Below, in pieces: positions 16,233 to 55,974 of a DNA stretch of 64,000 nucleotides. The position numbers and the translations under genes were made by a program. The notes below the pieces were generated by a model, which was not told where the DNA came from, made no database searches, and saw nothing but the letters and a program-made list of their open reading frames with translations. Source of the DNA: Chiloscyllium plagiosum. Taxonomy: Eukaryota. The DNA lies in the NCBI RefSeq assembly GCF_004010195.1, contig NC_057753.1, positions 4,305,779 to 4,369,778 of the forward strand. Reading direction: 5' to 3'. Position 1 is the stretch's first letter. Each line of letters starts with the position of its first letter.

Positions 16233-16535
16233 TTAGATTAGATTAGATTACTTACAGTGTGGAAACTGGCCCTTTGACCAAACAAGTACACACCGACCCT
16301 CCGAAGAGCAACCCACCCAGACCCATTGCCCTACATTTACCCCTTCACCGAACACTACGGGCAATTTAGCATGGCCAATTCACACTAACCTGCACATTTT
16401 TGGACTGTGGGAGGAAACCGGAGCACCCGGAGGAAACCCACGCAGACACGGGGAGAATGTGCAAATTCCACACAGACAGTCGCCTGAGGCGGGAATTGGA
16501 CCCGGGTCTCTGGCGCTGTGAGGCAGCAGTGCTGA
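16233..16535 (-). mobile_element. HE1/V-type SINE, young-looking
   Basis: GCACTGCTGCCTCACAGCGCCAGAGACCCGGG on minus strand; (attag)n tail at 16232-16248. Confidence 0.9.
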
Positions 16536-17454: not shown

Positions 17455-17524
17455 CTGGAACCCCGACAGCCGCAATGATGGGATAGTAAATGGCAAACAC
17501 CAGACCTTTTGGTATTCCATGCAT
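17455..17524 (-). CDS. GPR139-like: GPR139-like gene 1, coding exon 1 (MHGIPKGLVFAIYYPIIAAVGVP+G)
   Basis: ATG at 17524, donor CCAG|gtaac at 17455/17454, 70 nt = phase 1, matching the exon 2 acceptor phase. The same exon recurs at 37116 and 51332. An in-frame upstream ATG at 17584 is an alternative start. Confidence 0.88.
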
Positions 17525-23712: not shown

Positions 23713-23714
23713 GC

Positions 23715-27284: not shown

Positions 27285-27921
27285 TCGGACGACGCTGCTC
27301 CTTTAACAAGGTTAGGTTTTGCTTGGTTCTTATTTCACATGGGTCATAAACGCATAGATTCCAATTTGTCTTGTTTGGGTAGGTTTTTGGGCCGATTTGA
27401 ATATAGATAACAGATGCTTCCTCAGGAAAAAGACTTTCAAATTTAGAAAATGTGCAATGAAAGGGGAGTGGACTGTTCTCTCCCACCTCAGCTCCTCTAG
27501 TTTGGTTTCGTTGCTTTCAGCAAGCAGTCAGCTTCTTGAGGCTGCTGGTCAAAGAAAGGGTTCCATCCTGATCCTCTCTGTCTATGACATCTCCCCTTTA
27601 AGAATCGGCGTTTGATTTGACCCCTTTTTTTGCCAAGACTGTGTTTCTAGGAAAGTTGCAAGTATTTGGAATAGCATCATTAAGTTGCTATAGAGTCGAT
27701 TTGGGTTTAAAATAGTGAAGTTATTCTATTTCCTTTTCTATTTTGTTTGTGTTTTATTTGTAACCTTGCAAAAAAATTATGTTTTGCTTAAAACTAAATG
27801 TTTGGGGCAGTTGCATCATTCCTGGGATATCTACTCTGCACGTGCTTAAATCAACTGGCAAAGTTAGGGTTAGAGCTAATTTCTAGAATTATGTTGAGTG
27901 GGTCTGGCCTGATCCATGACA
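27285..27921 (+). repeat. 5' LTR of the Gypsy element
   Basis: tcggacgacgctgctcctttaacaag...gatccatgaca; aligns with 30775-31393. Confidence 0.85.
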
Positions 27922-30774
27922 GATCGGGGCTTTTTGCGGGATCTACCATTCCAAATTGGGATTAAAAGTGTTGGACATGAAAGGCAGCGAGTGGTAGGTA
28001 ATAGTGTATTTTGCTCTAGGTGTTGATTTCGATGGTAAAAATAATGGTTGAGATGTTAATAGCTGTTCTCTCGCAAAGATTTTTCTGGGCGTGCTGGAAG
28101 TGACTTTGCAGATCTACAAAAGGAAAAGCTGCTGAAGTTGGCAGTCAAGCTGGAGTTGGAACCGTCTCCATGCGTGAGGAAACAAGAGGCAATTACAACA
28201 ATAGATCAGCATTTGGATTTGCTGGGAACGCCATCAGAATATTTAGAGGTGGCTAAGATTCAATTAAAAATGAAGCATCTTGAGTTCGAAGCAAAAGAAA
28301 TGGAAATGGCAAAGAAAAGAAACTCTTTGCATTGCGATTAAAAGCAGAGGAAAGCAAAAACTAACAAATCGCGTTAGCAGAACAAAAGCTAAAAGAAAGA
28401 AAGGGAGAGAGAGGAGAGAGAAGATGAGCAAGAGGAAAGGAGAGAGGGAGTTTGAACTTTAGAAGTTGGCACTTTGACAGGAAAGTCAGCTTAAAAGGAT
28501 GAAGATGAAGGCTGAAGTTAAGCTTAGTGAGGAAGAGAATGGGGATGAGCAAACACATGGTAGCAGAAGGCTCGGTGAGAATGTGTTTAAGTATATCAAA
28601 ACATTGCCTAAATTTGATGTGAAGGATGGGGAAGCGTTTATCATCTCATTTGAAAAGTTGGCTAAGCAAGTGCAGTGGCCAGTGACCGTGTGGGATTTGT
28701 TGATCCAAACAAAGCTTATAAGTAGAGCCATTGAGGTATTGGCATCACTATCAGTGCAGGTATCTGGGGCGCATGAGGAGGTGAAGAAAGCCGTCTTAAG
28801 CGTATTTGAGCTTGTATCAGAAGCCCAATATACAACGTTCAGGAATCTGAGAAGGCACTCTGGTTAAATCTACACTGAGTTTGAAAGGATCAAACAATGT
28901 AATTTTGAGAGACGGATCAGGGCATTATAAATAGAGCAAACCCACGACGCTGTAAGAGAGGCATTATTCTGGAGGAGTTCATAAATTCACTTCCTGAGGT
29001 AGTGAGAATTCATGTAGAAGAGCAGAGAGATAAAACGGTAAGATTAGCAGCTGAAATGGCTGATGATGATGAGTTGGTCCACAAGTCAAAGTTTGGTCTT
29101 TAACATCAATATCAGTCCGTGAGGGGCAGAAATTGTGGCAAAGGAAAATCCTCACGTGGTAAGGAAAGGTATATCTCGGTGATGGTGGTAAGGATAACTT
29201 ACCACAGAGTAAAAAGCGAAACCCTTGAAGTGGAAAGAGAAGGTTAAAGGCTCCAGTGTTTTCACTGTGATAAATTAGGCCACGTGAAGTCACAGTGTTG
29301 GTGAGTTAGTAAAAGCACTGGGAGAGCCAAACGTAGGAAAACAGGATTAGCCAGTGAATTTTGTTGCAGTGGTCATGGAAAGCACAGTGGAGGTTAGAAA
29401 GCTGCACAAGAATGGACAACCTGTTCGGAGCTTGTTCAGGAGGAAGTTTTATCATCTCATTTGAAAAGTTGGCTAAGCAAGTGCAGTGGCCAGTGACCGT
29501 GTGGGATTTGTTGATCCAAACAAAGCTTATAAGTAGAGCCATTGAGATATTGGCATCACTATCAGTGCAGGTATCTGGGGCGCATGAGGAGGTGAAGAAA
29601 GACGTCTTAAGCGTATTTGAGCTGCACAAGAATGTACAACCTGTTCGGAGCTTGTTCAGGAGGAAGTGTCAGATCTTCTGAAACTATATACCAGCGAAGG
29701 TAAAGTTTACTCGCATAGGCCAAAACAGGTAAAGACATTACAATACTAAAGACACAGGATCCTCTGCATCTTTAATGTTGCGGATGAGGAAATATGTACC
29801 TCAGAAGGATTATTCTTGGAAAAAAAGTGCTCATAACGGGAATTCACTGTGAGACAAGTAATGCTAAATTACGTAGAGTGAGGTTCAAGTGTCCAGAGAA
29901 AAGATGAGAAGTGGTGGTAGGAGTACTGGACTTTGACAAAGCCCAAGTCACCTTCCTAGGCCATGGGCAAGTAACTCCATGGATGCAAAAATAAAGGTAA
30001 TTGGTGTGTTTCCATACCGTCGACAGAAAGGGCAGTGCTAAAATTCCTCGAATTGAGTGTTTTTTTTTTAATTGGAAATTCGCTGCCATATTTTGACAGT
30101 GTGACTCTCCACTCACTGAACTGCTAAGGACATACAAGAAGTTACAGTGGATGTTGAACTGTCCGAATGTAATTGACAGTCTGAAAGCTGTGTTAAACAC
30201 TGCCACAGAATCATCCACACCTAATTACGTGAAGCTGTTTAAGCTGGCTATCGATGAAAGTGATGTGGGTGTCAGCGTTGTGCTCTTTCAAGAAGACGAC
30301 AAGAAAAAACAAAGACATACCGAGTATTTCTTTAGGAAATTGAACATTCGTCTGCAGAAATATTCGACAGTTGGGGAAAACAAATTGAGCTTGGTGTTGG
30401 TGTTACAACCTTTCAACGTTTTTGTTATGAAAATCATATAGTCTGACCATAACCCATTGAAGTTTGTGGAAATATTTAACGAAAAAATCCGGATCGTTTA
30501 GGTGGAACTTGTTATTACAATCGTTCAATTTGAAAATTTTGCATGTGGCAGGACGAGAAAAGTGACAGGCGATACATTGTAGAGACTTCAGTGAGAAATG
30601 GAAGCGTTCGGTGGCAGGAGTAAATGGACTGAAACAGAATGTAGTGGTTCATATTTGCATGTTTATAATCAATGTAATGTGTATGGGTGTTGTAGTGCAC
30701 TAACAGTGTAAGATTAAGAGGTTTTAAAATGAAACCATCTTTGCATATTAATGGTTCCCTTTTTAAGGGGGTGG

Positions 30775-31393
30775 TGTGACGATGCTACTCTTTTGACAAG
30801 TCTAGGTTGCCATTGGTTTTCTTTTAGAGGGTTCATAAATGCATAGACTCCAATATGACTGGTTTGGATGAGTTTGATTATAGCTAACAGATACTGCCTC
30901 GGACGAAAAGCTGTCAAGTCGAAAAAAAAATACACTTGGACAATAATAGGAGAGTCGTCATTTCTCCCAGTACAGGTTTTTTTCTGGTTTGTTTGGGTTT
31001 GACTTGAGTTGCGCAAGCAGTCAGTTTTTTGAGGCTGCTGGTTAAAGTAACAGTTCCAAGCTGATCCTTTCTGTCTCTGACATCACTCCTGTAAGAACCT
31101 GGGTTTCAGTTTATCCTTTTTGCCAATGCGGTGTCTATGGGGATATTGCAAGTATTTGGAACAGCACCATTAAGTTGCTATCGAATCGACTAGGTATTTA
31201 AATAGTTAAGTTAATCTATGTTCTGTTCTCTTTTCTTGGTGTTTCATTCGGCAAACTTGCAAATAAATCCCGGTTGGGGCAGTTGCATCACGCCTGGAAT
31301 ATTCACTAAACACTTACTTTAAGCAGCTAGCAAAGTTAGCATCCGAGCTACGTTCTTGAAGTGATTTTCGAGGGTCTCGCTGGGTCCATAAGA
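30775..31393 (+). repeat. 3' LTR of the Gypsy element
   Basis: tgtgacgatgctactcttttgacaag...ggtccataaga, preceded by a polypurine tract. Confidence 0.85.
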
Positions 31394-31933: not shown

Positions 31934-32841
31934 TCATTGAATTAGTTTGGCAATTAAACTATATGGATAGATAAGTGTATTCTTCAGTGCCATTCTGAAT
32001 TCACCCTGAGTTCCTGCATAAATGAATGGGTTTATACAGGAACCCAAAAGCTGAAGCATGTATCCAGTTTCCTCCAGACTAAATGTTGCCTCACTGTTGT
32101 CAGAACCTGTGTAATAAGGAACATTTACAATTCGTACATAAACTATGGTCATGAAATATATTGTGTATAACAGGACGAAGCTGCTAGAGATGGCAAAGAG
32201 TAAAATAATAGACTTTCTCCGCTTCTCCATCTCTGGGTCACTCTGCTTCTTTTCAATATTTGGATTCCGGAGTCTCCTGCGTGCTCTGTTGGCAGACAGG
32301 ATGTGCCTGATTGTCATAGAATTGAGCAGTAAGATCGAAATGAATGGAACACATGGAGTGATAATTACATGGAACCAGTCATATATGGTCCATGCAGGGG
32401 ATGTATAGTATGTTAATTTAAATGTACAGAACCAGGCAACATTGTTAATGACGTACAAAGGTTCAAACATAAAGTACAAAACTGAATTTCTCAGACAGCT
32501 CAATGTACAGATTGTTCCTATTACCCATGCTGCTGTTTTCTTTGCACAGTACCGTGCTTTCAGCTTAGAGCAACAGATGGCCACAAATCGATCGAAGGTA
32601 AAAGCTGTTGTTAACCAGGCAGAACTGTCAATAGCAGAATAGGTTACAACAATGCGAAGGCTGCATATTGGTGTGATGGACAAATAACTGAATGGGAAAT
32701 AAATTCCACTGATCCGGTTCAATATTACCGCAGTGATAATCAGCAAGAGGTCTGTCACTGCCATGGACACCAGGTAGCAAATGACACAGTTAGACAGACC
32801 ACATCTGCTTCGACGCAGAATCACAATAACTGCAAAGTTTG
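31934..32841 (-). CDS. GPR139-like: GPR139-like class A GPCR gene 2, coding exon 2; spliced product 325 aa
   Basis: Acceptor ttttacag|CA at 32841, open to TGA at 31934; DRF, NPFIY and 7TM pattern; close paralog of gene 1. Confidence 0.92.
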
Positions 32842-34604
32842 CTGTAAAAGATACAGAGAGAAGGTTGCATGGAGTAAGGAAGTTCAATGTTTCTGCATGA
32901 GAATGTGGAAGCACTTGTACAAACAAGACTCTGAAAAGCTTAAACACAAGTAACAACAAATTCCAGAACAGCATCTCTCCCACTGTTATTAGACATCCAA
33001 ACGGATTGCACAAATTTTACATGTGAGTTTGATCTCGATTTTTATGCATCTTCTCTGCAGCCATGACGTTCTATTCAGAAATGTTTTATTCCGCTGAAGT
33101 ACTTTGCATTATGATGTGTTTGTACTGCATACAAAACCAAGCTTTTCACTGCACTTAGGTACATGTGACAATAATTAATTAAATACTGGGTTCGAAAATG
33201 ATGACAGCAAATATTACAGGTGAAAGCGAATAAAATAATATATAAGTGTGGATTTCAAACAAACATAGTTAATATATTGCTGAGAAATTGGAAAATCGTC
33301 TTTCCTGACAGAATCTTTGGATCACCACTTCATCTGCCGATCACTGGAATTTGTTTTCTTGCTCTGACTAAGTTTAAAAGAAAACATAGCAACTCGTGTA
33401 GAGAAAGGATTCATGAGGAAGTGACAGGACTGATGCTGGATCCACTGCTTTCCTTCATTCATGTAAATAATTTGGATGTGAATACAAGAGCCACAGTTAA
33501 TAGGGTTGAAGGGAACACCAATGTAAGTGATATTCTGGACAGTGAAGAAGATCATGTCAGAGCACAACAGCACATTAATCTGATGACTAATGGGCTGACA
33601 ATTGGCAGATGATGTTTAATTTTAACAAATGTAAGATATTGCATTTAGCTAAGACTAAACGAGTCAGGACTCATACATTTAATACTAGCTTCCCTGGAAA
33701 TGTTGCCAAACAAAGTGACGTGGAGGTGCAGAGTTCCTTGAAAGCGGAGTCGCAGTGCTCTGCAGAGTATATTTTGCATGCTTGCCTTCATTTAATATGG
33801 GGACTGCGATGCCAAGCTGTGGTCATACAGAACATTGGTGAGGGCAGTTTTTTAGAACACTGCATACAATTATGTTCGCCATTCTATCAGAAGGATTTTG
33901 TTAAACCCTACTGTTGTCAGAACACTGAATGGACTCACAAACACTTAACATTCACCTGTATCTTTGTTTTTGGTGTTGCCGCTGTTTACCTATTATTTAC
34001 TGATCTGTGCTAGTTAACTGTGTGATCTCCATGTATTGCTCGCAAGACAACGCTTTTCACTGTGCTTTGGTATGCATGACAATAAGTTCGATTCAATTCA
34101 ATTCAACTCAAACCTCAGAGGGTGCAGGGACGATTTGCAAGATGTTACTGGAACTGGAGGGTTTGTGTTAAAGGAAGAGTGTTAAACAACATTTTCCCCT
34201 GAAGCATTGGAGGCTGAGAGGTGACGTTGCAGATGCTAATAACATCATGGAGGGAATGGACGGGGTGAATAGCCAATTTCTGAAGGAGGAGTGCCAAATG
34301 AGAGTGCATAGGTTAAAGGTGAGAGGGGAAAGAATTACAAAGGAACTTGAGGGGTAACATTATCATGCAAAGGATCGCCCATGTATGAGATGAGCTGCCA
34401 GAAGAAGTGGTGGCGACATTTAGAAGGCATCTGGATGGGTACACAGGTAAAACGTGTTTAGTGAGACGTAACCGTTTGCTAGCAAATAACATTAAGTCAG
34501 AATCGGATGATGGTCAGCGTGGACGAGTTGGACCAAATGTATATTTACATGCTTTGAGACTCTATGAATCCTCATTATTGCTCAGAACTGTGAACAGTGA
34601 TAAT

Positions 34605-34900
34605 GGGCGGCACGGTGGTTCGCACTGCTGCCTCACAGCACCAGGATCCTGAGGTTGATTCCCACCTGTCTGTGTGGAGTTTGCACATTCTCCCTGTGTC
34701 TGCGTGGGTTTCCTCCCACAATCCAAAGATGTGCAGGTGTAGTATATTGGCCATGCTAAATTGCCTGTAGTGCTAGGTGCGTTAGTCAGAGGTAAATATA
34801 GGGTAGGGGAACGGGTTTGGGTGGGTAACTCTTCGGAGGGGCAGTGTGGACTTGTTGGGCTGAAGGGCCTGTTCCCACACTATAGAGAATCTAATCTAGT
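34605..34900 (+). mobile_element. HE1/V-type SINE specific to gene 2 intron
   Basis: gggcggcacggtgg..gcactgctgcctcacag head; absent at the gene 3 site (~49828). Confidence 0.85.
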
Positions 34901-35000
34901 CAAATGAAACTGAATGAACGTTATAACCGTACTCAAGAACGTTTGCCCCAGATGCCAGACTCAACATAAATTACGCTGGACACAGAATGTCGAGGAAGTA

Positions 35001-36432
35001 ATCCTGGACATCAAGGAATTGAATGCAGAATCTGTGACAGCAAAACTCTCAGTGGAATAGTCAACAGCAACTCGTGTGGAGGACGGCAATGCTGTGAACT
35101 GAACAATAGTGTGATTACAATCACAACATAGTCAGAAAAGGTAGCATTAGGAAGATGCATGGCGAGAAGACAAAGGTATATACGTAAGGGTGTAAGGGAG
35201 AGAGAGAGTGACAGTAGAAAGAAATGTGCTTGTTTGGGTCCCAGCAGGACTATCCTTTATAAATGATCTTTGTGAGCTTCATTACTTTGAGCCACCATCC
35301 TGCATTGGAAACGTCCGCTTTCATTGTAAGTTTTTCTGTTCATAAGAACTTATTAGTTGAAAGTAAGATTTAGCAATCTATTGAGACACGGCACTGATTA
35401 TCAGCACATTGGAAACAGTTCAAAATCAACATTGACTTGCAATAATCAAGGATTGAGTGCATGACAATGCAGTTAACGAATACAATGGTCAGCAGAAATG
35501 GTTTTCTTCTTTTCTATCAAACATTCAAACGTTAAATAGCATCTATGAACTGAATTAATTCAGGGGGTTATTTCAGAAATTATTCCATCTTTCTTATTCC
35601 TAGACCCAAGAACTGTTTATGAAAACAAATCTCACTACAAATGCCAATCGCACAATTGCATCAGTGTGGTTGGAATGCAAAATTTTCAAATCGTAAGAGC
35701 CAATAGTTAATTGGAAATCCTGGACATCAAGGAATTGAATGCAGAATCTGTGACAGCAAAACTCTCAGTGGAATAGTCAACAGCAACTCGTGTGGAGGAC
35801 GGCAATGCTGTGAACTGAACAATAGTGTGATTACGATCACAACATAGTCAGAAAAGGTAGCATTAGGAAGATGCGTGGCGAGAAGACAAAGGTATATATG
35901 TAAGGGTGTAAGGGAGAGAGAGAGTGACAGTAGAAAGAAATGCGCTTGTTTGGGTCCCAGCAGGACTATCCTTTATAAATGATCTTTGTGAGCTTCATTA
36001 CTTTGAGCCACCATCCTGCATTGGAAACATCCGCTTTCATTGTAAGTTTTTCTGTTCATAAGAACCTATTAGTTGAAAGTAAGATTTAGCAATCTATTAA
36101 GACACGACACTGATTATCAGCACATTGCAAACAGTTCAAAATCAACATTGACTTGCAATAATCAAGGATTGAGTGCATGACAATGCAGTTAACGAACACA
36201 ATGGTCATCAGAAATGGTTTTCTTCTTTTCTATCAAACACTCAAACGTTAAATAGCATCTATGAACTGAATTAATTCAGGGGGTTATTTCAGAAATTATT
36301 CCATCTTTCTCATTCCTAGACCAAAGAACTATTTATGAAAACAAATCTCACTACAAATGCCAATCGCACAATTGCATCAGTGTGATTGCAATGCAAAATT
36401 TTCAAATTATAAGAGCCGATAGTTTATTGGAA
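35001..36432. repeat. 716-bp direct tandem duplication in gene 2 intron
   Basis: atcctggacatcaaggaattg at 35001 and 35717; copies near-identical; single copy in gene 3 intron (~49924-50655). Confidence 0.95.
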
Positions 36433-37046
36433 CACCATTCACACCACACCACTAGTTCAAATTCGGCGCAGAAATAGCATTAAAAAGAAATACTTGTCTT
36501 GCAGTGTGAGAATTTACCAAACTTGATGACGTCAGTAATATTTCACTTACCTCTTTACAACATGGCAATATGTGATATGTTATGACGAAACCTCGACATA
36601 ACAGAATTCCTATCGAATTATATTGTTTTCAATGACCTAGACTTCCATCAAGAACAAGAAAATAATGCAACTAGATTAATATTGTGCACCCATGGAGTAA
36701 ATGACCCAAAGTATATATTGATGGATTCCACAGTGCATACAATCGAAGTTACTGAAATGTGTTGTGGCGACTTTGAAAGCGAAGCAGGGATGCCAGTACA
36801 GCTGGAAATGTTTCCTTGAAGTTTAATGAGAATGTTCACTTGAAAAAAAGTATTATTCAAGCAGAGTCATTGTATAATCTCAGAGCAAATTTATTCCTGC
36901 AAAGAAATAAATTTGCTACAAAATGTAACAGAAAGTTTCTAGTGAAATTGCAGATGGTATATCACTCACATACCAGAACACAATTGTAAATTTGAAACGC
37001 TCATATAGCTCATCATGATTGCCTTTATCATAACTGAATACAGTAC

Positions 37047-37116
37047 CTGGAACACCGATAGCTGCAATGATGGGATAGTAAATGGAAAACAGCAGACCTT
37101 TTGGTATTCCATGCAT
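37047..37116 (-). CDS. GPR139-like: GPR139-like gene 2, coding exon 1 (MHGIPKGLLFSIYYPIIAAIGVP+G)
   Basis: ATG at 37116, donor CCAG|gtact at 37047/37046, 70 nt, phase 1. Confidence 0.88.
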
Positions 37117-40189: not shown

Positions 40190-40910
40190 CAAAATACTTG
40201 CAAAATTCTCTTGAAGACTCACCACCAAGACTTGGCTGCCATTCTTTTACTGGCACTGCCTCACAATCCTGAAGTATTGCTCCATTAAGAGTTGCAGTAG
40301 TTCAAGGCATTTTGGCATCTGTGCAGTTATGGGCGTCACTTCAGAGAAAGGCTGCGACTGCCTTGGAAAGTGCACAGAAGGACATTACTGGAATGTGTCC
40401 AAGAAGGAGAAAATTCAGCTTTGAGGCTAGATTGAAGAAGGTGAGACTTACTCCACTGGAGGAAAGAAGACAGAGGAGACTTGATACAGGTTTTTAAAAT
40501 CATGAGTGGTTGGACAGCGTAGATAGTAAGAAGCTGTTCTCATTCATGAAGGAAGACAAAAGAACGAGAGGGCATGATCTTCAAGTGAGGCACATTTGAA
40601 ACAAGATGATCTGAAATCTTTTCACATCGGTAGTTGATAGGATATGGAATGTACTGGGTGATGGTTGAGTCACGTTCAATTGAGGTATTGAAGAGGGCTT
40701 TGGATAATGGTTTCGATAGCAATACTGTGCAGGGATATGGGCAGTAGATTAACGCTGGAAAGTAGATGGTAGAGTCAAGGTAGATTGAATGAATTTATTA
40801 TGCACAATTATAATTTTGTGATTTAGAGAGAGGGTTAAGCTCATTTTAGGAATAATGTTGTTTTTAGTGTTTCGTGTCGGAAATAATGTGAATGACTGGT
40901 CTGGTGAGTG

Positions 40911-41025
40911 AGGACTGCAGATGCAGGAGATCAGAGCTGAAAAATCTGCTGCTGGAAAAGCGCAGCAGGTGAGGCAGCATCCAACGAGCAGGAGAATCGA
41001 CGTTTCGGGTATAAGCCCTTCTTCA
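40911..41025. mobile_element. Short Penelope-like terminal-repeat insertion with 13-bp TSD and hammerhead core
   Basis: TSD ggtctggtgagtg at 40898-40910 and 41026-41038; minus strand CTGAAGA-AGGGCTTATACCC-GAAAC-GTC. Confidence 0.75.
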
Positions 41026-41574
41026 GGTCTGGTGAGTGTTCAGCTCAATGTTGGGAGTCCATATTGTGGTTCCAGTAAGTTGTCAGTTTCTTTTGAGAGG
41101 TTTAATTCTGTATTGTTGATTAGTGCTTGGAGATTTATCCTGGAACTTAATTCAGCGTTGGGTGCGAACATCGCTTTCTGTGTCAGAGGCAGACTGAGCA
41201 GTTGGCTTGCAGTTCAATTTTGAGGATCAGTATTCTCAGATTTGGAGTCAGTTTGGATGCCAATCTTGGGCCTTAATGGTGGGGCATTGTTCAGGATATG
41301 AGTGGAGTTGTGTTCAGTGGGAAAGTTGGCACTGCAGTCATGGGGTCATTGATTAGTGATCCACAAGGCCTGTATTGGTGTCAATCAGTGCTGCAGCCTG
41401 TGTGTTTGATTGAACTCACTGTCATCATCAATACTGTGCATCAGTTTCGATACCTGTCTGATGCCAGCTTAAACTTTGCACTTCTCGTCTTTGATAGATA
41501 TTGCAAACAATCCAACACCACAGATTCAATGGACAGTCCACTCAGGGTGCCATTGAAACATTTGCTGCATGAGG

Positions 41575-41905
41575 ATGGCGCGGTGGATCATTGTTTAGCA
41601 CTGCTACCTCACAGCGCCAGCGACCCAGGATCAAGTCTAGCTTTGGGTGACTGTCCATGCGGTGATTGCACAAACTCCCTCTGTCACCACAGCGTTCCTC
41701 TGGGTGATCCAGTTTGCTCCCACAGTCGAAAGATGTGCCGGTTAGCTTATTGGCCATGTGAAATTACATATAGAGATCAGTGATGGGTTCGTTAGGTGCA
41801 TTAGTCAGGGATAAATACATTTGAGGGGGAATGGCTTTGGAATGGTTTGCTCTCAGATTGTTGGTTTGGGCTAAAGGGCCTGTTTCCACGCTATCGGGAT
41901 TCTAA
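41575..41905 (+). mobile_element. HE1/V-type SINE at a duplication junction (probable chimera)
   Basis: Left flank matches that of the SINE at 54573; right flank matches that of the SINE at 8247-8598. Confidence 0.8.
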
Positions 41906-44584
41906 TTTCTAATCATGTGAGGAAGAAGTGACTGACCAGAGTGAGGGCCCAGTTGATCAGTGACAGTGAAGGGCACATTGTCATGGAGATAGGGGAGGTC
42001 CTTAGTGAATATTTTCCTTCAGAATTCACTACTAACAGGGACCTACCCGTTTCTGAGGACAGCGTGAAACAGGCTGATGTACTCGAACATGTCAATGTTA
42101 CAAAGGAAGATGTGGTGAAAATTTTGAAAAAAAAAATAAGGATAGGTAAGTCTCCTCGGCCAGAGAGGAGATACCCAATGTTACTAAAGAAAAGTGAGAG
42201 AAAGGATACTGTATCTTTGGCGATGATCTTTGTGTCCTCACTGTCCAGTGGCGGAGTGTGAGATGATTTGGACGATGGCAAACGTTAATCTCTGGTGCAA
42301 AAAGTGGAAGAGGAATAATCCTGGGAATTACTGACCAGTCAATCTGTGGTGGGCAAATTATTGGAGAGGATTTTGAGGGACAGGATTTCTGATTATTTCC
42401 AAAGCCATCGTTTGATTAGAGATGGTCAGCATGGCTTTGTGAAGGGCAGTTCATGTACCACAAGCCTTACTGAATTCTTTCGTTGACCAAGTGGTTGTAT
42501 TGTACGAAGATTTTTGCAAGACGTTTCATGATGTTCCACACGGTGGTTCATTCAGAAAGTAAGGAGGCATGGGATACAGGAAACGTTGTCTGCCTGGATA
42601 CAGACTTGACTGATCCATAGAAGAGAGAAGGTGGTAGTAAATAGGGAGGATTCAGCCTGGAGCTCTGTAACCGAAGATCTACATGAATATGTTCTGGGAA
42701 CTTTGAATTTTGTGATTTTTGGAAGTGAATTGGTAAAAACATGCAAGGGTACGTTAGTAAGTTTTCGATGACACCAAGGTTGTTGAAGTGGTGGATAGTG
42801 TGGAGGGCTGTTGTAGGTTGCAAAGGGACATTGACCGGTAGCAGAACCTGGCTGAGAAATGGCAGGTGGTTTCCAAACAGTAAAAGTGTGAAGTGATTTA
42901 TTTTGGAAGTTCGAATTTGAATGCAGAACACAGGGTTAAAAGCAGGATTCTTGGCGCTCTAGAGGAACAGAGGGATCTTGGGATCCATGTCCACAAATTC
43001 TTCAAAGTTCCTACCGAGGTGGATAGGGTTGTGAAGAAGGCGCATGGAGGATATGCTGCAGCTCTATAGAATCCTGGTTCAAGCACGCTTGGAATATTGT
43101 GTTCATTTCCGTTCACCTCTTTACAGGAAGAATGTGGAAGTTTAAGGGAGGGCGCTGAGAAGCTTTACCAGCATGTCTCCTGGTCTGGAGGACATGTCTT
43201 ATGAAGAATGGTTGAGTGAGCTGAAGCTGACGGGTGAGAGGCGACTTGATAGAGGTGTGCAAGATGATGAGAGGCTTAGTTAGAGTGAATAGTCAGAGCC
43301 TTTTTTTCCGATGGCAGAAATGGCTATCACAAGCGGGATTAATTTTAAGGTGACTTGGTGAAGGTTTAGGGGAGATACCAAATGGCTGTTCTTTACATAG
43401 AGAGTTGTAGGTGCGTGGGATACACTGCCAGTGGCAGTGATAGAGCAGATATATTAGGGACATATCAGCGGCTCTTGGATAGGCACATGAATGATAGTAA
43501 AATAAAGGGTATGTATATTATTTGATCTAAGAGTAGGATAAAAGGAAAGCACAACATCAAGGGCCGAAGAGTTGTACTGTGCTGAACTGTTCTACGTTCT
43601 ATGTTCCATGTTCTTAAGGACAGATGGTATTCAGATGAATAAATTTCATTGACAAGTTTTGCTGCATATTAGCAATCTTATGAAAAGCAAGTGATTACAT
43701 TGAAGTATGCTCTGTACCACTTAAAAAGAAAGCATTGAATGTTGGATTCTTTACAAACTGGAGTAGGTCAGTTTCAGAAGTGATTATGGAAGCGAGGAGA
43801 AAGCGAGGACTGCAGATACTGGCGAGTCAGAGTTGAAATGTGTCGCGCTGGAAAAACACAGCAGGTCAGACAGCATCCGACGATCAGGACAGTTTCAGGC
43901 AAAAGCCATTCGTCAGGAATCCATCCAGGTTTATTTGCCGCTTTTCTATTTAATAATTAATAAAGCTCGTTCACGTGAATGTTCGTAGCTCATGGTCATG
44001 CATATCGCTGCTGAACCATCTTGCATTCAATATGCTGGACAGCAAATTCTAAAGGATAGCGTATACCTAATTAGCTTGATCAAAATTTAGCAACGCATAA
44101 CATATTTTAACTGAAAGCTACCACTGTAGAGCAGTTGTGGAACTCCAGTACTAAAAGTGAGGGCATTAAATCCAAACCATCAGATGTAGATATAAACAAC
44201 TGGAGATTGTAAGTGGTTCTTTGGTATGCCAGTCGACGCTAGTTACAACTTGAAGATGGAAAGGTCACTCCAGAGAAGAAAGTCAATTGTCAGTGACTGT
44301 ACCATTGAACCTGATAACAATTCCAGGGAGCAATCTTATTGCTAATTTAAATTCAGCAAACACTGACTCCTTTATCCGTAGATGGAGCACAATATTCAGC
44401 GCATTGATAATGTACAGATTCGCCGGCCTACTGTCAGGCTGTCAGACTATACAATTCCAATTTAGCTCATCAATGACTCGTCAGAATTTACTGACGTGGA
44501 CGAGGAAGGAAAGACAGTGAAAGAAAGAGGGAAGTGTACAGATAGTGGAAAAATATGAGAGGTAGAGAACAAAAACATGAAAAA
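41905..44584 (+). repeat. Segmental duplicate of ~8595-11368 (CR1 RT + tail + Penelope fragment + non-repeat block)
   Basis: Shared junctions: ttctaatttctaat(t/c)atgtgaggaa; CR1 tail followed by ggacagatggtattcag; ends at agagaacaaa(t/a)acatga. Confidence 0.92.
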
Positions 44585-44589
44585 CGTCA

Positions 44590-46170
44590 TATCTGTACAA
44601 AAGGTGCAGATAAGAAAGTTGAAGTGGAATTAGCAGAGAACTGTTTGATCAGGAGCAAATGGCTGACAAAGTAGAAACATTTAACTTAGATAAATTAACT
44701 GAGTTACTGCAGAAAGAAGAACAATTTACACAATTGTATCAACAGGTATACACAGAAAAGTAATCCAAATGGATCCTTGAAAGCTACTATCTTACAAATG
44801 ATGTCTTCACGAGGAAATGGAGACCATCATATTTTGAGGAAATTGTGAAATGAACAGAAGTTCATGAAGTCATATTGCCAGTGGGTTACGGAAAGGAACT
44901 GTTGCAGGCAGCACATGAATTACCAGTGTGAGTCATTGAGGGGTAATAAACTCAAACTCAAATACAAAAGCATTTTTACTGTCTTGTACTGTATACGGAT
45001 ACAGCTGAACTTTGACAGATATGTCAAACATATTAGGTAATTGGAAAACTACAGACAATAATGAAACCCGCACCATTAATACCCATCCCTGTATTTGAGG
45101 AACCTTTTCCAAGAGTCCAAATTAATTGCGTAGGATCCCTACTTAAAACAATAAGTGTGAATCAGTATTCGTTCAAAATAATGAGTATGTCCACTAGATA
45201 TCTAGAGGACATTTCATTACATAATATCGCAGCTTAAAAGGATTGTGTAGGAGTTACTCAAATTTTTCACTTGGGTTACAATCAGATCAAGGGTCAAATT
45301 TCACATCAACGTTGTTCAAGGAAGTGATGGACAGCTGAGGAACAAAATCTAATGTGTACCACCCTGAATCGCAGGGAGCGCTAGAACGATGGCAGCAATC
45401 GTTAAAGACCACGTTGAGGGCTGATGGTCAAGACTATCCAGATGATAGGGGTGAAGGATTTCCGTTTTTAACGTTGTACCAGCAGAGATGCACCAAACGA
45501 ATCGATTAAATTCAGTCCATTTGGAACAATGTTTGGACATGAAGTGAGAGGACCGCTAAAATTGATTAAGGTGAAAATGGTAAGTCAGAATTCAGAGGCC
45601 ATATATTTAGACTGTGTGTTAACATTTAGGGAACGGATACATAGAGTGTGGAAGTTAGCTAGACAGAATTTAAAACACAGTGCAGCATACCAAGAAACAG
45701 GAAGCAGACAAGAAGTAAAAAAAATCCCGATTTTGCTAACGCGGATAAGTTTTAGTGTTACTTCCAGTGACAGGTGAACTTTTAAAAGCATGGTTTAGAG
45801 GAACATATCAAGTCGAAAGGAGGTTGAGTGAGGCAAACTATTTGATAAGGACTCCAGACAGATAAAAAGTATCACAGAATGTATCATGTGAAAATGCTCA
45901 AATAAATTTTGATAGAAAACGGAACAGAAAAGCAACTGTATTATTGGTTCCAACACAGAGGGAAGAAGCATGTCAAGGGGATTCTGAATAAGACATACCT
46001 CAAATTTAATTGGGCAATCAGGAAGTCGTCATAAATTGAGATGAATTATTGAGTTACCTTCCCGAAGAAAATCGAAATGGCCTGATAGAGTTATTGCTAT
46101 CACATGGTGAGATTTGTAGAAATAAACTGGAAAGCACTAACGTAAATATGTCTGATGCAAATATAGGAAA
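44590..46170 (+). mobile_element. Gypsy (Gmr1-type) integrase fragment plus pre-RT linker, no LTRs
   Basis: Degenerate RKWRP..AHELP..KHFY (HHCC region), PAPLIPIPVFEEPF, QSDQGSNFTS, YHPESQGALERW, GPY-like motif, then LSYLPEE..ICRNKL. Confidence 0.85.
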
Positions 46171-46403
46171 CTAAACTGTCTGGCCTTGTGTGCTTGCATC
46201 AGAATTGAGTCAGTGCACTCATCAAAGGCGAAAATTGAATGAGAACAATTTACAAGGGTGAATTGTGGATAGTTAAATCTATTGCCAAAATCAAAGAGTT
46301 GGTTTCAAGTTTTGCATATGCGACTGAGGGTCGAACATGAGATGGATTAAAGGATTAACATGTGGAATGCAACAAAGAGTAACAACTTGATTTTACCTTG
46401 AAA

Positions 46404-47311
46404 TCATTCACGTGGTTTGGCAATTAAACTGTATGGATAGATAAGTGTATTCTTCAGTACCATTCTGAATTCACCCTGAGTTCCTGCATAAATGAATGGG
46501 TTTATACAGGAACCCAAAAGCTGAAGCATGTATCCAATTTCCTCCAGACTAAATGTTGCCTCACTGTTGTCAGAACCTGTGTAATAAGGAACATTTACAA
46601 TTCATACATAAACTATGGTCATGAAATATATTGTGTATAACAGGACGAAGCTGCCAGAGATGGCAAAGAGTAAAATAATAGATTTTCTCCGCTTCTCCAT
46701 CTCTGGGTCACTCTGCTTCTTTTCAATATTTGGGTTCCGGAGTCTCCTGCGTGCTCTGTTGGCAGCCAGGATGTGCCTGATTGTCATAGAATTGAGCAGT
46801 AAGATCGAAATGAATGGAACACATGGAGTCAAAATTACATGGAACCAGTCATATATGGTCCATGCAAGGGACGTATAGTATGTTAATTTAAATGCACACA
46901 ACCAGGCAACATTGTTAATGACGTACAAAGGTTCAAACATTAAGTACAAAACTGAATTTCTCAGACAGCTCAATGTACAGATTGTTCCTATTACCCATGC
47001 TGCTGTTTCCTTTGTACAGTACCGTGCTTTCAGCTTAGAGTAACAGATGGCCACAAATCGATCGAAGGTAAAAGCGACCGTTAACCAGACAGAACTGTCA
47101 ACAGCCGCATAGGTGACAAGCATACGAAAGCTGCATATTGGTGTGATGGACAAATAACTGAATGGGAAATAAATTCCAGTGATCCGGTTCAATATTACCG
47201 CGGTGATAATCAGCAAGAGGTCTGCAACAGCCATAGACACCAGGTAGTAAATGACACATCTGGACAGACCGCATCTGCTTCGGCACATAATCACAATGAC
47301 TGCAAAATTAG
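46404..47311 (-). pseudogene. GPR139-like: GPR139-like gene 3, exon 2 with premature stop (R260*) after TM6; probable young pseudogene
   Basis: Acceptor ttcttccag|CT at 47311. TGA at 46604-46602 where gene 2 has CGA. The frame stays open past it through TM7 (CINPFIY) to a TGA at 46406-46404, giving the same 908-nt exon length as gene 2. Confidence 0.85.
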
Positions 47312-47625
47312 CTGGAAGAAATACAGAGAGAAAATTGCATGGAGAAAGAAAGTTCAATGTTTGTGCATGAGAATGTGGAAATGATTGTAGAACTAAAATG
47401 CTGAAAGGAACTCTGAAAATAATAGGATTTGTCTGAAGTTTACTGCTAAAATGTCCCTTTGACAATTCACTCTTGTTTCCCTGTTTATACTAACAATTGA
47501 GGTGAAACCATGCTACTTCAATGTAATTACACTGAACAAATGTCAATATTACATCACAAAGAGATCAAAATAATTGTTGGAACATCAAATGAAAGCCCCT
47601 TCTCACTACGGTTAGAATCTATTCC

Positions 47626-47942
47626 GCTGATGGGTGAGTGCCGAACCAGAGGACACAGCTTAAAAATACGCGGTAGACCATTTAGGACAGAGATGAGGAG
47701 AAACTTCTTCACCCAGAGAGTGGTGGCTGTGTGGAATGCTCTGCCCCAGAGGGCAATGGAGGCCCACTCTCTGGATTGATTTAAGAAAGAGTTGGATAGA
47801 GCTCTCAAGGATAGTGGAATCAAGGGTTATGGGGAGAAGGCAGGAACAGGATATTGATTAAGGATGATCAGCCATGATTATATTAAATGGTGGTGCAGGC
47901 TCGAAGGGCAGAATGGCCTACTCCTGTACTTATTGTCTATTG
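47626..47942 (+). mobile_element. Young CR1 3'-end fragment in gene 3 intron
   Basis: RTRGHSLKIRGRPFRTEMRRNFFTQRVV; (attgtct)n tail; tctattcc repeated at both sides. Confidence 0.85.
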
Positions 47943-50900
47943 TCTATTCCAATCTCTTCTGTCAGGCAGAAGAAAGAAACGCTTAAACGCAAGTTACAAC
48001 AGTTTCAAGAGCAGCCTCTCCCCCACTGTCATTAGATTTCCAAACGGATCTCACAAATTTTACATGTGAGTGTGATCACCTTCTCTGCAGCCGCAACGTT
48101 CTATTTAGAAATAATTTATTATCCTAATGGACTTTATATTATGATGTTCTTGTACTGCATGCAAAACAAAGCTTTTCACTGCACCTCGGTGCATGTGACG
48201 ATAATAAATAAAGAAAATAATGGGTTCAAAAACGATGGCAGGAATTATTGCAGGTGAAAGCGAATAATACAGTACGTAAGTATGGAAATCAAACAAGCAT
48301 GCCTAATATATTGCTGAGTTAAGAACATGCCCTCGCCATTTAACATTTAAGATAAGTATTACTTTTTTAGAAAAATAATGTTCCATCACTTTGAATCAGT
48401 GAATCCTTACATTGTGGAAACTGGCCATTCCACCCATCGAGTTTAAACCAATCATCTGAGAAGCATCTTATTCCGACCTCCCGTTTGCTCATGGCCCTTT
48501 AACTAACATTTCCCGTTACTAATCTATCAAGCCTTTGAATCTTTGGACAGTGGCATGAAACTGGGGCATGCGGAGGAAACCCATGGAGCCAAGGAGAGGG
48601 TGTGCAATTTCCACAGAGAAAATCGCCTGAGGATTGATTCGAACCCTCGTCCCCACTGCTGTGGGTTATCAATAGTAACTATTGAGGCTTTGGTTAAAAA
48701 ATTCTCGTCTTCGTGAAAAATTGGATAAACGTCTTTCCTGACAGAATCTTTTAATCACTATCTCTCCTGCTGATCATTAGAATGTTTGTTCTTGCTCTGT
48801 CTAAATTTAAAAGAAAACATGCTAACTCGTATGGAGAAAGGATCTCCGATGAAGTGAAGGACTGATGCTGGATCCACTGCTTTCCTTCATTCATATAAAT
48901 AATTTGTATGTTAGTACAAGAGATATTGTTAGTATGTTTGAAGGCAACACCGATATAAGTGGCATTCTGGAAAGTGAAGAAGATCATGTCAGAGCACAAC
49001 GGCACATTAATCTGACGACCAATGGACCAACGAGTGGCAGATGGTGTTCAATTTTAGTATATGTATGATATTGCATTTAGTTAAGACTAAGTGGGTCAGG
49101 ACTTATACATTTAATATTAGTTTCCTGGGAAATGTTGCTGAACAAAGTGAGCTGGAAGTGCAGGTGAGTTGTTCCTTGAAAGTGGAGTCGCAGTGTGGTG
49201 AAGAATGTATTTTGCACGCTTGCCTTCATTAGTCAGAATATTGAATATAGGGACTGGGATATCATGTTGTGGACATACAGGACATTGGTGACGGTTCTTT
49301 TAGAACTGTGTATACAATTCTGGTCGGCCTTCAGTGCGAAGGATGTTGTTAAAAATCAGAGGGTTCAGGGATGCTTTGCAAGATGTTGCCGGAACTGGAG
49401 GGTTTGTGTTAAGGGAAAAGTCTAAATAGGTTGTGAGCATTGGAGGCTGAGGGGTGACGTTACAGATGCTAATAACAGCTTGAGGAGAATAGCCAACTTC
49501 CTAAGTTGGAGGCTTGCAAAATGAGAGTGCATAGGTTAAAGGTGTGAGGGGAAAGACATTCAAAAGGACCTGAGGGGTAACATTTTCATACAAAGAGTCG
49601 TCCGTGTATGGGATGAGCTGCCAGAAGATGTGGTGGAGACAGTTAAAAGGCATCTGGACGGTTATACAAGTCAAAAGCGTTTAGCGAGAGATAGCCGTTT
49701 GCTAGCAGATCGCATTAACTCAGAATGGGATAACTGGTCAGCGTGGACGAGTTGGACTGAAGGGTATGTTTACATGCTTCGGGACTCTATGAATCCTCAT
49801 TATTGCTTAGAACTGTGAACAGTGACAATGGAACTCAATAAATGTTATAACCTTACTCAAGAACCTTTGCCTCAGATGCCATCTCAACATAAATTATGCT
49901 GGACACAGATTGTCGAGGAAGTAATCATGGATATCAAGGAATTGAATGCAGAATCTGTGACAGCAAAACTCTCAGTGGAATAGGCAAAAGAAATTCATGT
50001 GGAGGACGACATTCTGTCAACTAGTTAATGGCGCATCTATGATCACGACATAATCAGAAAAGGTAGCATTAAGGAGCTGCGTGACATCAAGAAAAAGGCA
50101 TATACACATGGGTGTAAGGGAAAGAGAGTGGAAGTGTAAAGAAATATGCTTGGTTGGGTCCCAGCAGGACTATCCTTTATAAAGTATCTTTGTGTGTATC
50201 ATTACTTTGAGACACCATCCTGCATTGGATACGTCTGCTTTCACTATAAACTGTTTTTGTGTTCTTAAGAACCTAATAGTTGAAAGTAAGATTCAGCAAT
50301 CTATTGAGATACAATAATGATTATCAGCACATTGGAAACAGTTCAAAATCAACATTGGCTTGCAAAAATGAGGGATTGAGTGCATCAATGCAATTCTCCA
50401 TGACAATGCATTTAACTAACAAAATGGTCATCAGAAATGGTTTTCGACTTTTCTATCAAACACTCAAACGTTAAATAGCATCTAACAACTAAATGAATTC
50501 AGGGGATTATTTCAGAAATTATCGCGACTTTCACATTACTAGACCAATGAACAGTTTGTGAAAACTAATCTCACTACAAATGCCAATCACACAATCGCAT
50601 CAGTGTGATTGCAATGTGAAGTTTGCGAATTGTAAAAGCCGATAGTTAATTGGAATAGCATTTACACTACACCACTCGTTCAAATTCGGCGCAGAAATTG
50701 CATTAAAAAGAAAAAAACTTGTCTTGTAGTGTGAGGATTCACCAAACTTGATGACGCCAGTAACATTTCACTTACCTCTTTACAACTTGGCAGTATGTGA
50801 TATGTCATGAAGAAACCTCAACATAATAGAATTTCTCTCTGATTACATTGTTTTCAATGACCTAGACTTCCATCAAGAACAAGAAAATAATGCAATTATA

Positions 50901-51262
50901 TTAACATTGAGCAGCCATGGAGTAAATGACCCAAAGTATGAATTAATGGAATCCACAGTGCATACAATCGAAGTCATTGAAATGTATTGTGGCTACTGTG
51001 AAAGCGAAGTAGTTATGCCATTACAGCTGGAAACTGTTTTCGTGAAATTTAATGCAAATGTTCACTTGAAAAAAAGTATTATTCAAGCAGAGTCATTGTA
51101 TAATTTCAGCACAAATTTAATCCTGTAAAGAAGTGAAATTACTACAAAATGTTTCTAGTGAAATGGCAGATGGCATATTGTTCACATATGGGAACACAAT
51201 TGTTAATTTGAAACATCCATGCAGCTCATTATGTTTGCCTTTATCATAACTGAATACAGTAC

Positions 51263-51332
51263 CTGGAACACCGATAGCTGCAATGATGGGATAGTAAATG
51301 GAAAACACCAGACCTTTTGGTATTCCATGCAT
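51263..51332 (-). pseudogene. GPR139-like: GPR139-like gene 3, exon 1 (MHGIPKGLVFSIYYPIIAAIGVP+G), intact
   Basis: ATG at 51332, donor CCAG|gtact at 51263/51262; nearly identical to gene 2 exon 1. Confidence 0.85.
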
Positions 51333-53237
51333 AGCTGTCTGCTGCACTGGATCAGTTCTGTAACCCGTAGAAGGAAAGTCACATTTATCCATGTTTCCAG
51401 GCTCTAGGGACACAATCAGCCTGTTTGATTCTTTCAATAGAAAAAAAAAACGAATTGCACTCATTGAAACAAAAAACACAGCTACTCCTGGGATCATGTT
51501 TATATTTAGATGGCATCGAAAGCTCTTCACAAAATGCTGGTCCAAAATGAAATACAGGAGATTTACGTTACATTTTATCCCTGAAGGAGTACGTGAACAG
51601 AAATAGGCCATTCAGGCTCTCAAGCATGTTCTGCCTTTCAATGTAATCACGACTGATTGGTGGCCGACCTCATATGCTCGCCTTTGGGCCACACCCTTTG
51701 ATACCTTTGCGAAACAAAAGCAAACTATTGTAGATTTAAAATTATCAACAGACTCACATGAGAAAACGAAAAACAAAACAAGCGGGGGATATTTTACAAA
51801 ATCAGTTGAAGGGACCCTCCAGCGTAAAATCTCACTTCCATGGTGTCAGCAGCAGGCATAATTGGCGAGAATTAGACTATCTGTAAGCGTGAACAGAGCC
51901 GATTCTTGGAACTGAGTCTTATCCAGTCTGTGATCACGAGTCAACTTGCCTTCACCTCTTGAGATAGCTGAAGTGGGTACGCAAAGGTCTGGCAGTTGTC
52001 ACTTATACAAATGATTGGTGTGAGAATGTAGAGGACATGGTTAGTAAGATTGAGAATGATACTAAAAATAGTGGCAGAGTCGACGGTAAGGAAGGTCATC
52101 TAAGATTACTATCGTCTTGATCAATTAGGCAATTAAAAGTAGGGGCTGGGGCTGCTGGAGCACAGAAACCTAGATGGTCAAGTGCATAATTCTTTTAAAT
52201 TTGACATGGAGATGGTGTAGTTGTATTTAGCATGTTTGACTTTGTTGCTCACTGCTTTGGGTATAGCAGTTAAGCCATTTTGTGGTTGTTTTGGCGAAGC
52301 CTCGTCGGGAATACTGCGCAGTCCTTAGTGCTCCTTTATAGGAAGGCCAGTAAGTTGAAGAGGGTTCAGAAAAGATTTGCCAGGATGAAGCTGATCTCAA
52401 TATTTGGTGAAAGCAGACGTCTAGATCTTCTACATCAATTTTTTTTTACATTTTCCTTCCTATTTGCAACCCAACTGGATTACCTCATTTGTCCATATTG
52501 TACTTAATCTACTAAGCGTTTACCCTCTCCGCTTGTCCAAATTCCACTGGAATATATCTGCATCCTTCTGACAGCATAGTTAGTTTCTCTCTGAGATAAA
52601 CATAGCTCCAACATTCAAGCTCAGCAACATTCAAGACAAAACAGTTGTGTGGCAGGAAATAGTTGCAAAATTCCCTTAAAACTCACCATCGAGACTTAAC
52701 TGCCATTCTTTTAGCGTCACTGGGTGGCAATCCTGAAGTGTTCCTGCATTAAGAGCTGCATTAGCTCAAGGCATTTTGGAGTATGTGCACCACTTCAGAG
52801 AAAAGATTAAACTGCATTGGAAAGTGCGCAGAAGGAAATTACTGGAGAGGTTCCAAGTAGGAGAAAATTCAGCAATGAGGGTCGATTGAAGATGGTGAGA
52901 CTTACTCCACTGGAGGAACGAAGATAGAGGAGACTTGATATAGGTTTTTTAAATCATGTGTGTTTGGACAGTATAGATAGCAAGAAGCTGTTCTCACTCA
53001 TGAAGGAAGACATAAGAACGAGAGGACATAAGTTTAACATGAGTTACAATTGAAACAAAATGATCTGAAATCTTTTCACATCGGTAGCTGTTAAGATATG
53101 GAGTGTACTGGATAGAAATATGGCTGTACCAAGTTCAGCCCAGGTATTGAAGAGGGCATTGGATAATGCTTTTGGATAGTAATAATGTGCAAGGATATGG
53201 AGGAAGAGACAGGTGATTAACGCTGGAAAATAGATGG

Positions 53238-54572: not shown

Positions 54573-54925
54573 GGGTGGCACGGTGGCTCGGTGGTTGGCA
54601 TTGCTGCCTCACAGCGTCCGGGACCCACATTCAATTCCATCCTCGGGCGACTGTCTATCTTGAGTTTGCATATTCTCCCCATGTCCACGTGGGTTTCTGT
54701 TGGGTTCTCCGGCTTCCCCCATCGTCCAATGATATGTAGGCTGGTGCATTTGCCGTGCTAAACTCCCCATAATGTTGAGGGAGATGTAGGTTAGGTGCAT
54801 TAGTCAGGGGAAGTGTAGAGTACTAGGGAAGGGGAATGGGTCGTGATGGAATACGGTTTAGAGGCTAGGTGTGGACATGTTGAGCCAAATGGTCTGTTAC
54901 CACAGTGTAGGGAGTCGATGATTCT
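54573..54925 (+). mobile_element. HE1/V-type SINE (SINE B)
   Basis: gggtggcacggtggctcggtggttggcattgctgcctcacagcg head and CR1-like tail. Confidence 0.85.
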
Positions 54926-55974
54926 GTGGTGATTCCATGAGATAATGCTAATAGCCTTGCTAGTTGCCTCCTAAAACGTATAATGGTTTTTGACCAGATG
55001 CAGAAATGCTATCTTTTGACCTAAAATGCGTAATCTGTCACAAGACTTAAAATGCTAGATCTTGAACAGCTTTAATTTGTATTTTTTTCCCCTTGAAACG
55101 ATCTCTAATCTTATACGGCCAACAACAAAGTGAAACCAGATTTAGTCGCATCATGTCTCTCGTCTTGAACCATCAGAACCCTGCTTTCTGAGAAGAATCC
55201 TGCATTTCATTGAAAACTAAACCAATCTCCGAGTCCACAACAATCACTTGGTATTAAATTAAAGGACTCCACTTCACATGAATAAATGCCAATATATTAT
55301 TATTTTCAAAATATTAAATCGTCATTGTAATTTAACTACCATTTTCTCTTCTGGCGTCCTTTATGTGCCTCCCGTAATGTGCCATAGATCGCGGCCTTAC
55401 AGTCGGCTCACGGGGGGTTTAGATCAAAGCAGTTCTGAAAGAGACATTTGGGTGCTGTGCACAGATCTTTGAAGGTGGTAGGACAGGTGAATAAGGTAGT
55501 GAAGAAAGCATCTATCAATAAGAATGTACCGATCATGGCAGAGATGATAAGAGCAGTGAGATTATGTTGTTGTAAAGCACATTGGCTTGACCAAACTGGA
55601 GCACAGATAGCAGTTCTAGTCACCAGACTTAGGTGAAGAATCAGTAACATGGGATCACAATTTTAATATGAAAGGCAAAATGTTTAGTCGGGATTTTTCC
55701 AGAGAGTGGTGGGAATTTGGAACGCACTGGGACGTTGGTGAGGTGGAAAACCTCTCAACCTTTAAAGTATCTGGAACAAGGTCATATATCAGGCAACTAC
55801 GTTTCAAAACAATCTCTGAAACAGTTCCGTCAAAACCTCATTCGCTTACACACCTATTTCCAAACATCATTGCGAGCCACAAACTCAAATTGTGAGTTCT
55901 ATCTTTGCACAAAGGAAGCTGATGTAGAAAAAGAAACTGTTTATTATTCAGAAAACAGAGAAGACATGCAACAA

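Follow-up and report, generated by a model that had tools for sequence, protein, structure and literature searches.

A SINE with exchanged flanks at a duplication junction in a shark receptor gene array

Four minus-strand rhodopsin-family GPCR genes lie in the 64-kb window (the whole stretch of 64,000 nucleotides of Chiloscyllium plagiosum DNA analysed here), and a tRNA-headed SINE, here called C, stands at a junction between paralogous blocks (Table 1). The arrangement raises the question of whether exchange between two dispersed SINEs, A and B, gave rise to one of these genes, gene 3, and how much of the intervening DNA was copied in the process. All four genes carry the PF00001 domain. Among the best 120 of 1861 matches, their closest relatives are shark proteins, 52-81% identical and mostly named 'probable G-protein coupled receptor 139', and, judged by these annotation names, the window GPCRs appear to be members of the shark 'probable GPR139'-named receptor family. 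In a tree of 24 proteins, whose 20 relatives were all drawn from the gene 1 match list, genes 2 and 3 form a pair (100/100), which is joined by gene 1 (99/92), with a whale shark protein as the sister to genes 1, 2 and 3.

Table 1. Features of the window, by position
Feature	Position	Strand	Remarks
Near-full-length LINE hosting SINE A, presumed CR1-type	4496..10370	+	nested minus-strand LINE piece at ~7250-8210
SINE A	8250..8599	+	native site inside LINE; CATGTG left (8245-8250), TATGTG right (8600-8605)
Gene 1	13246..17584	-	two-exon GPCR, open frame; exon 2 at 13.2-14.2 kb
Degenerate Ty3/gypsy-like LTR element beside gene 2	27288..31389	+	without integrase region
Gene 2	31934..37116	-	two-exon GPCR, source of gene 3; exon 2 at 31.9-32.9 kb
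Left flank of C	40192..41572	+	paralogous to left flank of B (52657-54572), p 0.13-0.17; ends CATGA(G) like B's
SINE C	41573..41913	+	tRNA-headed, at duplication junction; body leans to A, tail of the same type as A
Putative crossover interval (best estimate)	41573..41593	+	between last B-specific flank base (41572) and first derived A-shared base (41594)
3' part of A's host LINE at C	41914..43600	+	starts at the codon of the A insertion; p 0.21 to 8600-10360
Non-LINE part of C right flank	43601..44584	+	paralogous to 10361-11368, p 0.18; ends at second junction
Ty3/gypsy-like integrase-region fragment	44585..46166	+	P0128 residues 509-1046; polyprotein residues absent from the element beside gene 2
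Gene 3	46401..51392	-	two-exon rhodopsin-family GPCR, gene 2-like; exon 2 at 46.4-47.3 kb
SINE B	54573..54935	+	separate insertion, different tail type; CATGAG on both sides (54568-54573, 54936-54941)
Gene 4	59-60 kb	-	rhodopsin-family GPCR, PF00001

A flank swap at SINE C

The first-pass annotation had proposed that the sequence to the left of C matches the left flank of B and the sequence to its right the right flank of A, and both matches were recovered. Among nine copies of the SINE, the 100 nt left of C matched only B (local score 103, 0/500 shuffles) and the 100 nt right of C only A (score 70, 0/500 shuffles), with the other eight of the nine copies scoring 12-22 against the C flanks on each side. 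Over longer distances, A and its right flank (8242-11368) align to 41565-44584 (3.1 kb), and 46167-54809 is matched, as a set of collinear segments, by the gene 2 unit (31718-41810); the homology blocks end at SINEs A and B. C is a recombinant junction of the A and B loci, as had been suggested, and lies in register with the 5' ends of both SINEs; the junction element is full length, with the outer flank coming from one substrate and the other flank from the second. While the swap itself is real, the extent originally given to C has to be corrected: the SINE occupies 41573-41913, the quoted right flank (ggattctaatttctaat) consists in part of its tail, and the true right flank is a LINE that begins at 41914. 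Likewise, B had been placed upstream of gene 2, a position that it would have held only in the inferred ancestral state; today it lies upstream of gene 3. The hexamer to the left of C (CATGAG) is that of the left side of B, and the hexamer to its right (CATGTG) is of the A type; the two are alike at five of six positions, so that taken alone they resemble a target-site duplication of C's own.

A profile search identified 10 long copies of this ~340-bp SINE in the window, including A and B, which both lie on the plus strand and are matched by one profile. The head is of tRNA type, with A- and B-box-like motifs visible in the alignment of the copies, the box definitions behind this call being those that we assume to be standard. 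Profile positions 283-347 match three short stretches (E 3e-5 to 8e-5) at the ends of LINE-like repeats, and the 3' end of the SINE resembles LINE 3' ends in the window. An Rfam search with the window SINE returned no matches, and pattern scans for further copies returned 0, 10, 2 and 0 matches, of which 12 loci only one (L011) gave a profile match, 38 bases long and taken as chance. The window SINE resembles HE1: going by the sequence features that we take HE1 to have, the likeness lies in the tRNA-type head, the length of ~340 bp, the LINE-like 3' end and the shark host, and, being one of features and not of sequence, it makes the name a lead. HE1 is described as a V-SINE of sharks and rays with the partner LINE HER1 (PMC3747384). 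One window copy, at 34606, has a visible empty site (~49827) and a 4-5 base ATG-containing duplication; the likeness of flanks among the SINEs (CATG/ATG) may reflect target choice. SINE D (24392), considered as a lost paralogue of A or C, was rejected, as its flanks do not match.

The host LINE of SINE A and the age of the junction

Which of the flanks is native can be read from the LINE in which A resides. Relatives of the protein of this LINE, whose subtype name, CR1, we presume, carry endonuclease and reverse transcriptase domains. When one relative, P0003, was aligned to the window, its residues 257-267 fell immediately before the left end of A (8211-8243), and the residues from 268 on at 8600 and again at 41914; SINE A sits between two adjacent LINE codons. 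The match of residues 257-267 is a single HSP, weak (E 0.88) and exact in position. Scored against a motif from three LINE relatives, the 11 codons left of A reach 27.7, as compared with -3 for C and 10 for B, and the score of A is attained at 21 of 127,920 window positions, which fall into three sites, namely A, another LINE copy and a third on the minus strand at ~48650. In addition, residues 19-282 of a second relative, P0002, map to 6474-7258, and the same LINE continues past the nested minus-strand piece. When the protein relatives were mapped on the window, no same-strand counterpart of the 5' part of the LINE was found left of C. Since the LINE runs on both sides of A, this SINE was inserted into the LINE and stands in its original place; at C, the LINE starts at residue 268 without its 5' part, and C is therefore a copy of the A insertion, the left side of which was swapped for that of B at the SINE boundary. 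The split host LINE is the strongest evidence on which flank is native.

The block 4496-11840, found beside gene 1 and not beside gene 2, starts at the apparent 5' end of the LINE and extends 1.47 kb past its tail. It is bounded by short AGAAGC repeats, with a single such repeat in unit 2 (26867-26878), and could be either a 3' transduction by the CR1-type LINE or the result of a deletion in unit 2.

SINE B has a different history. It diverges from C at p 0.36, compared with 0.13-0.17 for the flank that the two have in common, and its tail is of a repeat type other than that common to A and C. The native position of A in the LINE, together with the other flanks, other tail and matching hexamers of B, indicates that A and B are most probably independent insertions. 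B differs from the majority state of the other copies at 22% of sites (69/319) and is thus not young; it presumably predates the duplication event.

The divergences, computed with columns near gaps removed, place the junction in time. Between A and C, the right flank differs at p 0.180 in the non-LINE part (n=923) and 0.211 in the LINE (n=1532), whereas the left flank and introns of genes 2 and 3 differ at 0.13-0.17, and non-coding DNA of gene 1 differs from that of gene 2 or 3 at 0.25-0.36. For the two stretches that border the A block and are paralogous between genes 1 and 2, the values are 0.295 and 0.294 (n=390 and 180). Because the right-flank values are below those between genes 1 and 2, the right flank was copied from the gene 1 neighbourhood well after genes 1 and 2 had split. 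The two sides of the junction are not exactly equal in age, since the value for the LINE part of the right flank (0.211) exceeds those for the left flank (0.155-0.165). On these sequence distances, the junction appears about as old as the split between genes 2 and 3, and both sides (13-21%) fit one old event.

An exchange inside the element had been expected to leave a B-like 5' part in C, and no such part was found. Instead, C leans weakly to A at eight of eight cut points, the left segments favouring A+C at each of them by 1.4-4.4 log units. Of the 19 sites at which C has a non-majority state in common with one parent, that parent is A at 15 (7 of these in the tail and 2 lacking an outgroup) and B at 4, among which 3 are CpG-prone, polarity here resting on the seven other window copies as outgroup and not on a genome-wide consensus; the earliest of the sites shared with A, at 41594, is a transversion. 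The best trees place A and C together in both halves of the SINE, with weak support (76/85 and 61/69), and a B+C grouping is not rejected (AU p 0.145 for the 5' half and 0.232 for the other half; range 0.09-0.23). In a site-likelihood scan, limited by the zero-length inner branch of the B+C tree, the best switch falls at 41587, a switch at 41813 is only 0.8 units worse, the profile is flat to ~41820, and a B-like left part extending beyond ~41850 is clearly worse. The crossover is best placed, with low power, at 41573-41593, and may lie as far 3' as ~41820. The missing internal switch is compatible with an exchange at this SINE, because a crossover near the 5' end predicts just that. Raw within-SINE distances were rejected as a test of ancestry, A being nearer to the family average than B.

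The C-side copy (41575-43600) has accumulated more changes than the A-side copy (8251-10360), in SINE and LINE alike. Among 282 SINE sites, private changes number 49 in C and 20 in A; at 777 sites of the adjacent LINE, there are 90 changes on the C side and 54 on the A side (difference of ratios, p 0.28). Error-prone repair was rejected as an explanation for the long branch of C, since the adjacent LINE changes in the same direction, pointing mostly to a regional rate effect.

The second junction and the competing explanations

The suggestion that the whole interval between A and B had been duplicated is not borne out, as this would have placed two genes between C and B, where a single copy, similar to gene 2, is found. 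From 46167 on, the DNA between C and B is gene 2-like; no copy of gene 1 was found in the duplicated block, and no counterpart of 11369 to ~29400 was found between C and B, the homology to unit 1 ending at a second junction at 44584. Given the missing gene 1 copy, one crossover is insufficient, and a second junction or a deletion is needed. The 1.6 kb that follow are the integrase region of a Ty3/gypsy-like element: residues 67-291 and 1237-1454 of the gypsy polyprotein P0128 match beside gene 2 and residues 509-1046 beside gene 3, on the same strand, and P0128 has no other match in the window. The two sets of pieces are complementary, without DNA overlap between them, and may come from a common insertion, in which case the new block would have lost, or never received, ~18 kb including the gene 1 copy. 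In relatives of this gypsy-like element, the integrase precedes the reverse transcriptase.

We consider it very likely that the duplication was SINE-SINE mediated, and hold some form of SINE-SINE exchange at C to be highly probable; the full course of events, in which an exchange between A and B yielded C and a tandem block that then lost or skipped the gene 1 copy, is probable. Under this model, two separate same-strand SINEs would have flanked a two-gene block, with A, lying in a LINE, on the downstream side of gene 1 and B on the upstream side of gene 2. Guided by their homology, the two would have undergone an exchange that was resolved at or close to the SINE 5' ends and joined the left flank of B to the body and right flank of A, creating C along with a tandem copy of the two-gene block. 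From the copied block, ~18 kb with the gene 1 copy would have been lost through a later deletion, or bypassed when the template was switched again during that event, so that at 44584 the right flank of A leads into the middle part of the gypsy-like element beside gene 2. The remainder would be gene 3, a gene 2 copy that was later partly homogenised with gene 2 and now has a stop codon. The exchange could have been either a meiotic unequal crossover or replicative template switching, without preference, since later divergence hides the crossover tract, so that NAHR and a template switch are not told apart.

An alternative that also invokes a SINE-SINE exchange, although not of the whole interval, is the duplication of a single gene: gene 2 would have possessed an older copy of SINE A and its right flank, inherited from the gene 1/gene 2 duplication, which recombined with B and was later deleted. 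No loss of a gene 1 copy is then required, and the absence of 4496-11840 from unit 2, which retains one short direct repeat at 26867-26878, fits a deletion in unit 2 and an insertion in unit 1 equally. The right flank should in that case match the p of 0.29 seen between gene 1 and gene 2 DNA, but it stands at 0.18-0.21, and a later conversion over 3 kb would have to be added; we give this scenario only a small chance of being correct. Still slimmer is the prospect that the breakpoint formed at a microhomology of 4-6 bases (CATG) between the future target of B and the left end of A, with B inserted later into the gene 3 copy. CATG is present at both sites, no B-derived SINE base has been demonstrated inside C, and the SINE at 34606 also has an ATG-containing short duplication, so that the target may be a preferred one. 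An independent same-strand SINE would nevertheless have to land on the exact base of an earlier breakpoint, when, of all positions in the window, only ~0.4% are no farther than 25 bases from the 5' end of a plus-strand SINE, and B, with its 69/319 diverged sites, is not young.

An assembly error that joined two contigs at a SINE was weighed against sequencing data, four of 23 runs being compared with 40200-47000. In a public run of the same species (X14), which differs from the window at ~1/100 positions elsewhere, the contigs 41227-41624 (0 differences) and 41595-42078 (3 differences) tile the junction by a 30-base overlap inside the SINE. The first extends from the left flank across the putative crossover interval, and the second covers the SINE body and right flank; neither spans all of C, and the lack of a single molecule across the element is what an assembly error has in its favour. 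In runs of two other organisms (X5 and X11), none of the pieces listed bridges the 5' junction, and the depth there may stem from the paralogous flank; from the fourth run (X18), ~4 in 100 raw reads were used, and these carried no information on the junction. The divergence of 13-21% between all paralogous flanks and their counterparts marks them as separate old loci, not assembler copies, making an artefact hardly credible. No more credible is the idea that A, B and C are one insertion carried in a repeat unit, A having lost its left flank and B its right: all three are long-form SINEs that start after CATG, but the left flank of A is not lost, being the continuing LINE, and B has another tail, differs from C at p 0.36 and is not grouped with A or C in the best trees.

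Known systems and the fate of the receptor genes

The analogy to Alu-Alu recombination drawn in the first-pass annotation holds with respect to orientation, full-length junction, independence of the substrates and timing, but does not extend to a simple whole-interval duplication. Alu/Alu-mediated rearrangement (AAMR), as treated by Song et al. 2018 (PMC6071635), yields a full-length chimeric element at the junction, and template switching is argued there beside NAHR, with 300-500 bp quoted as the minimum for efficient homologous recombination. The shark case shares the two same-strand SINEs as substrate and the full-length chimeric junction element, and its SINE is likewise shorter than the quoted 300-500 bp, which makes template switching as plausible as classical NAHR. 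It differs in that the SINE is a non-Alu, tRNA-headed one, in its age, with ~20% later divergence and no mappable microhomology tract, and in the second junction, which removes most of the duplicated block. The mouse Abp genes, according to PMC3669608, were duplicated through L1Md_T elements, young 6-kb L1 copies with a clean switch over 384 and 127 divergent sites, and the same source notes an L1-mediated globin duplication and Alu enrichment at primate junctions. Abp and the shark locus have in common a gene-family array in which a tandemly duplicated gene block has a repeat at each outer end and a third, hybrid repeat between its copies; the shark SINE, in contrast, is 340 bp long, old and without a clean internal switch, and proof comes from the flanks and the split host LINE. 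In the complex PLP1 duplications, as described in PMC6902434, an Alu-Alu junction is accompanied by further template switches. Here too, one junction lies at a chimeric SINE and another lacks long homology, but the PLP1 rearrangements are new human events of known parental structure, whereas in the shark one event is not distinguishable from two.

Hybrid repeats that contain a duplication junction have been well documented among primate Alu and mouse L1 elements, and C is one further instance, unusually well anchored for its age since the split host LINE shows the native flank; in the open-access literature searched, there was no report of a hybrid-repeat duplication junction for a shark SINE or for this receptor family. 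A possible screen would look for SINEs whose host element continues on one side only. SINE exchange had also been put forward as the mechanism by which the receptor array grows. One event did give a gene 2-like copy, gene 3, but the copy has an in-frame stop, and a profile search of 16541-24391, the expected older gene 1/gene 2 boundary, found no long copy of the window SINE; for these two reasons the junction attests to a single event and does not establish SINE exchange as what drives the growth of the array. One of the two recent duplications in the window is SINE-marked, and a single event in one window with a seemingly disabled product means that C alone does not explain the growth of the array. 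A broader proposal, that gene 3 arose when the template was switched twice in a single replicative event (from SINE B to A, and from the A flank into the gypsy element beside gene 2) and that such SINE-SINE exchange is recurrent in shark GPR139-named arrays, readable from split host LINEs, we consider unlikely as it stands.

Gene 3 looks disabled by a nonsense codon in the region of the sixth helix, an in-frame TGA at 46604-46602 (minus strand) that corresponds to a CGA in gene 2; exon 1 and the splice sites are intact. The dN/dS of ~0.44 between genes 3 and 2 suggests that the loss of function is recent. Stretches of genes 2 and 3 near exon 1 differ at p 0.08-0.09, with dS of 0.097, suggesting later conversion between the two genes. 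In patches of exon 2 (46998-47300), sites that gene 1 has in common with gene 2 or gene 3 are as many as the gene 2-gene 3 sites, which suggests local gene conversion. In gene 2, the upstream ATG frame has a stop at codon 4 (37165 region, minus strand), and the second ATG is intact. The gene 2 intron contains a recent 716-base tandem duplication (35000-36432, 97% identical), and the 3' flank of gene 1 a young inserted element (12174-12614) with 164-base inverted arms, 96% complementary. A repeat that is short and extremely abundant, with the highest depth in all four runs compared, is found at 10559-10686, 40907-41027, 43802-43917 and 53236-53380; its copies, for example that at 40907-41027, were inserted separately in the paralogous units.
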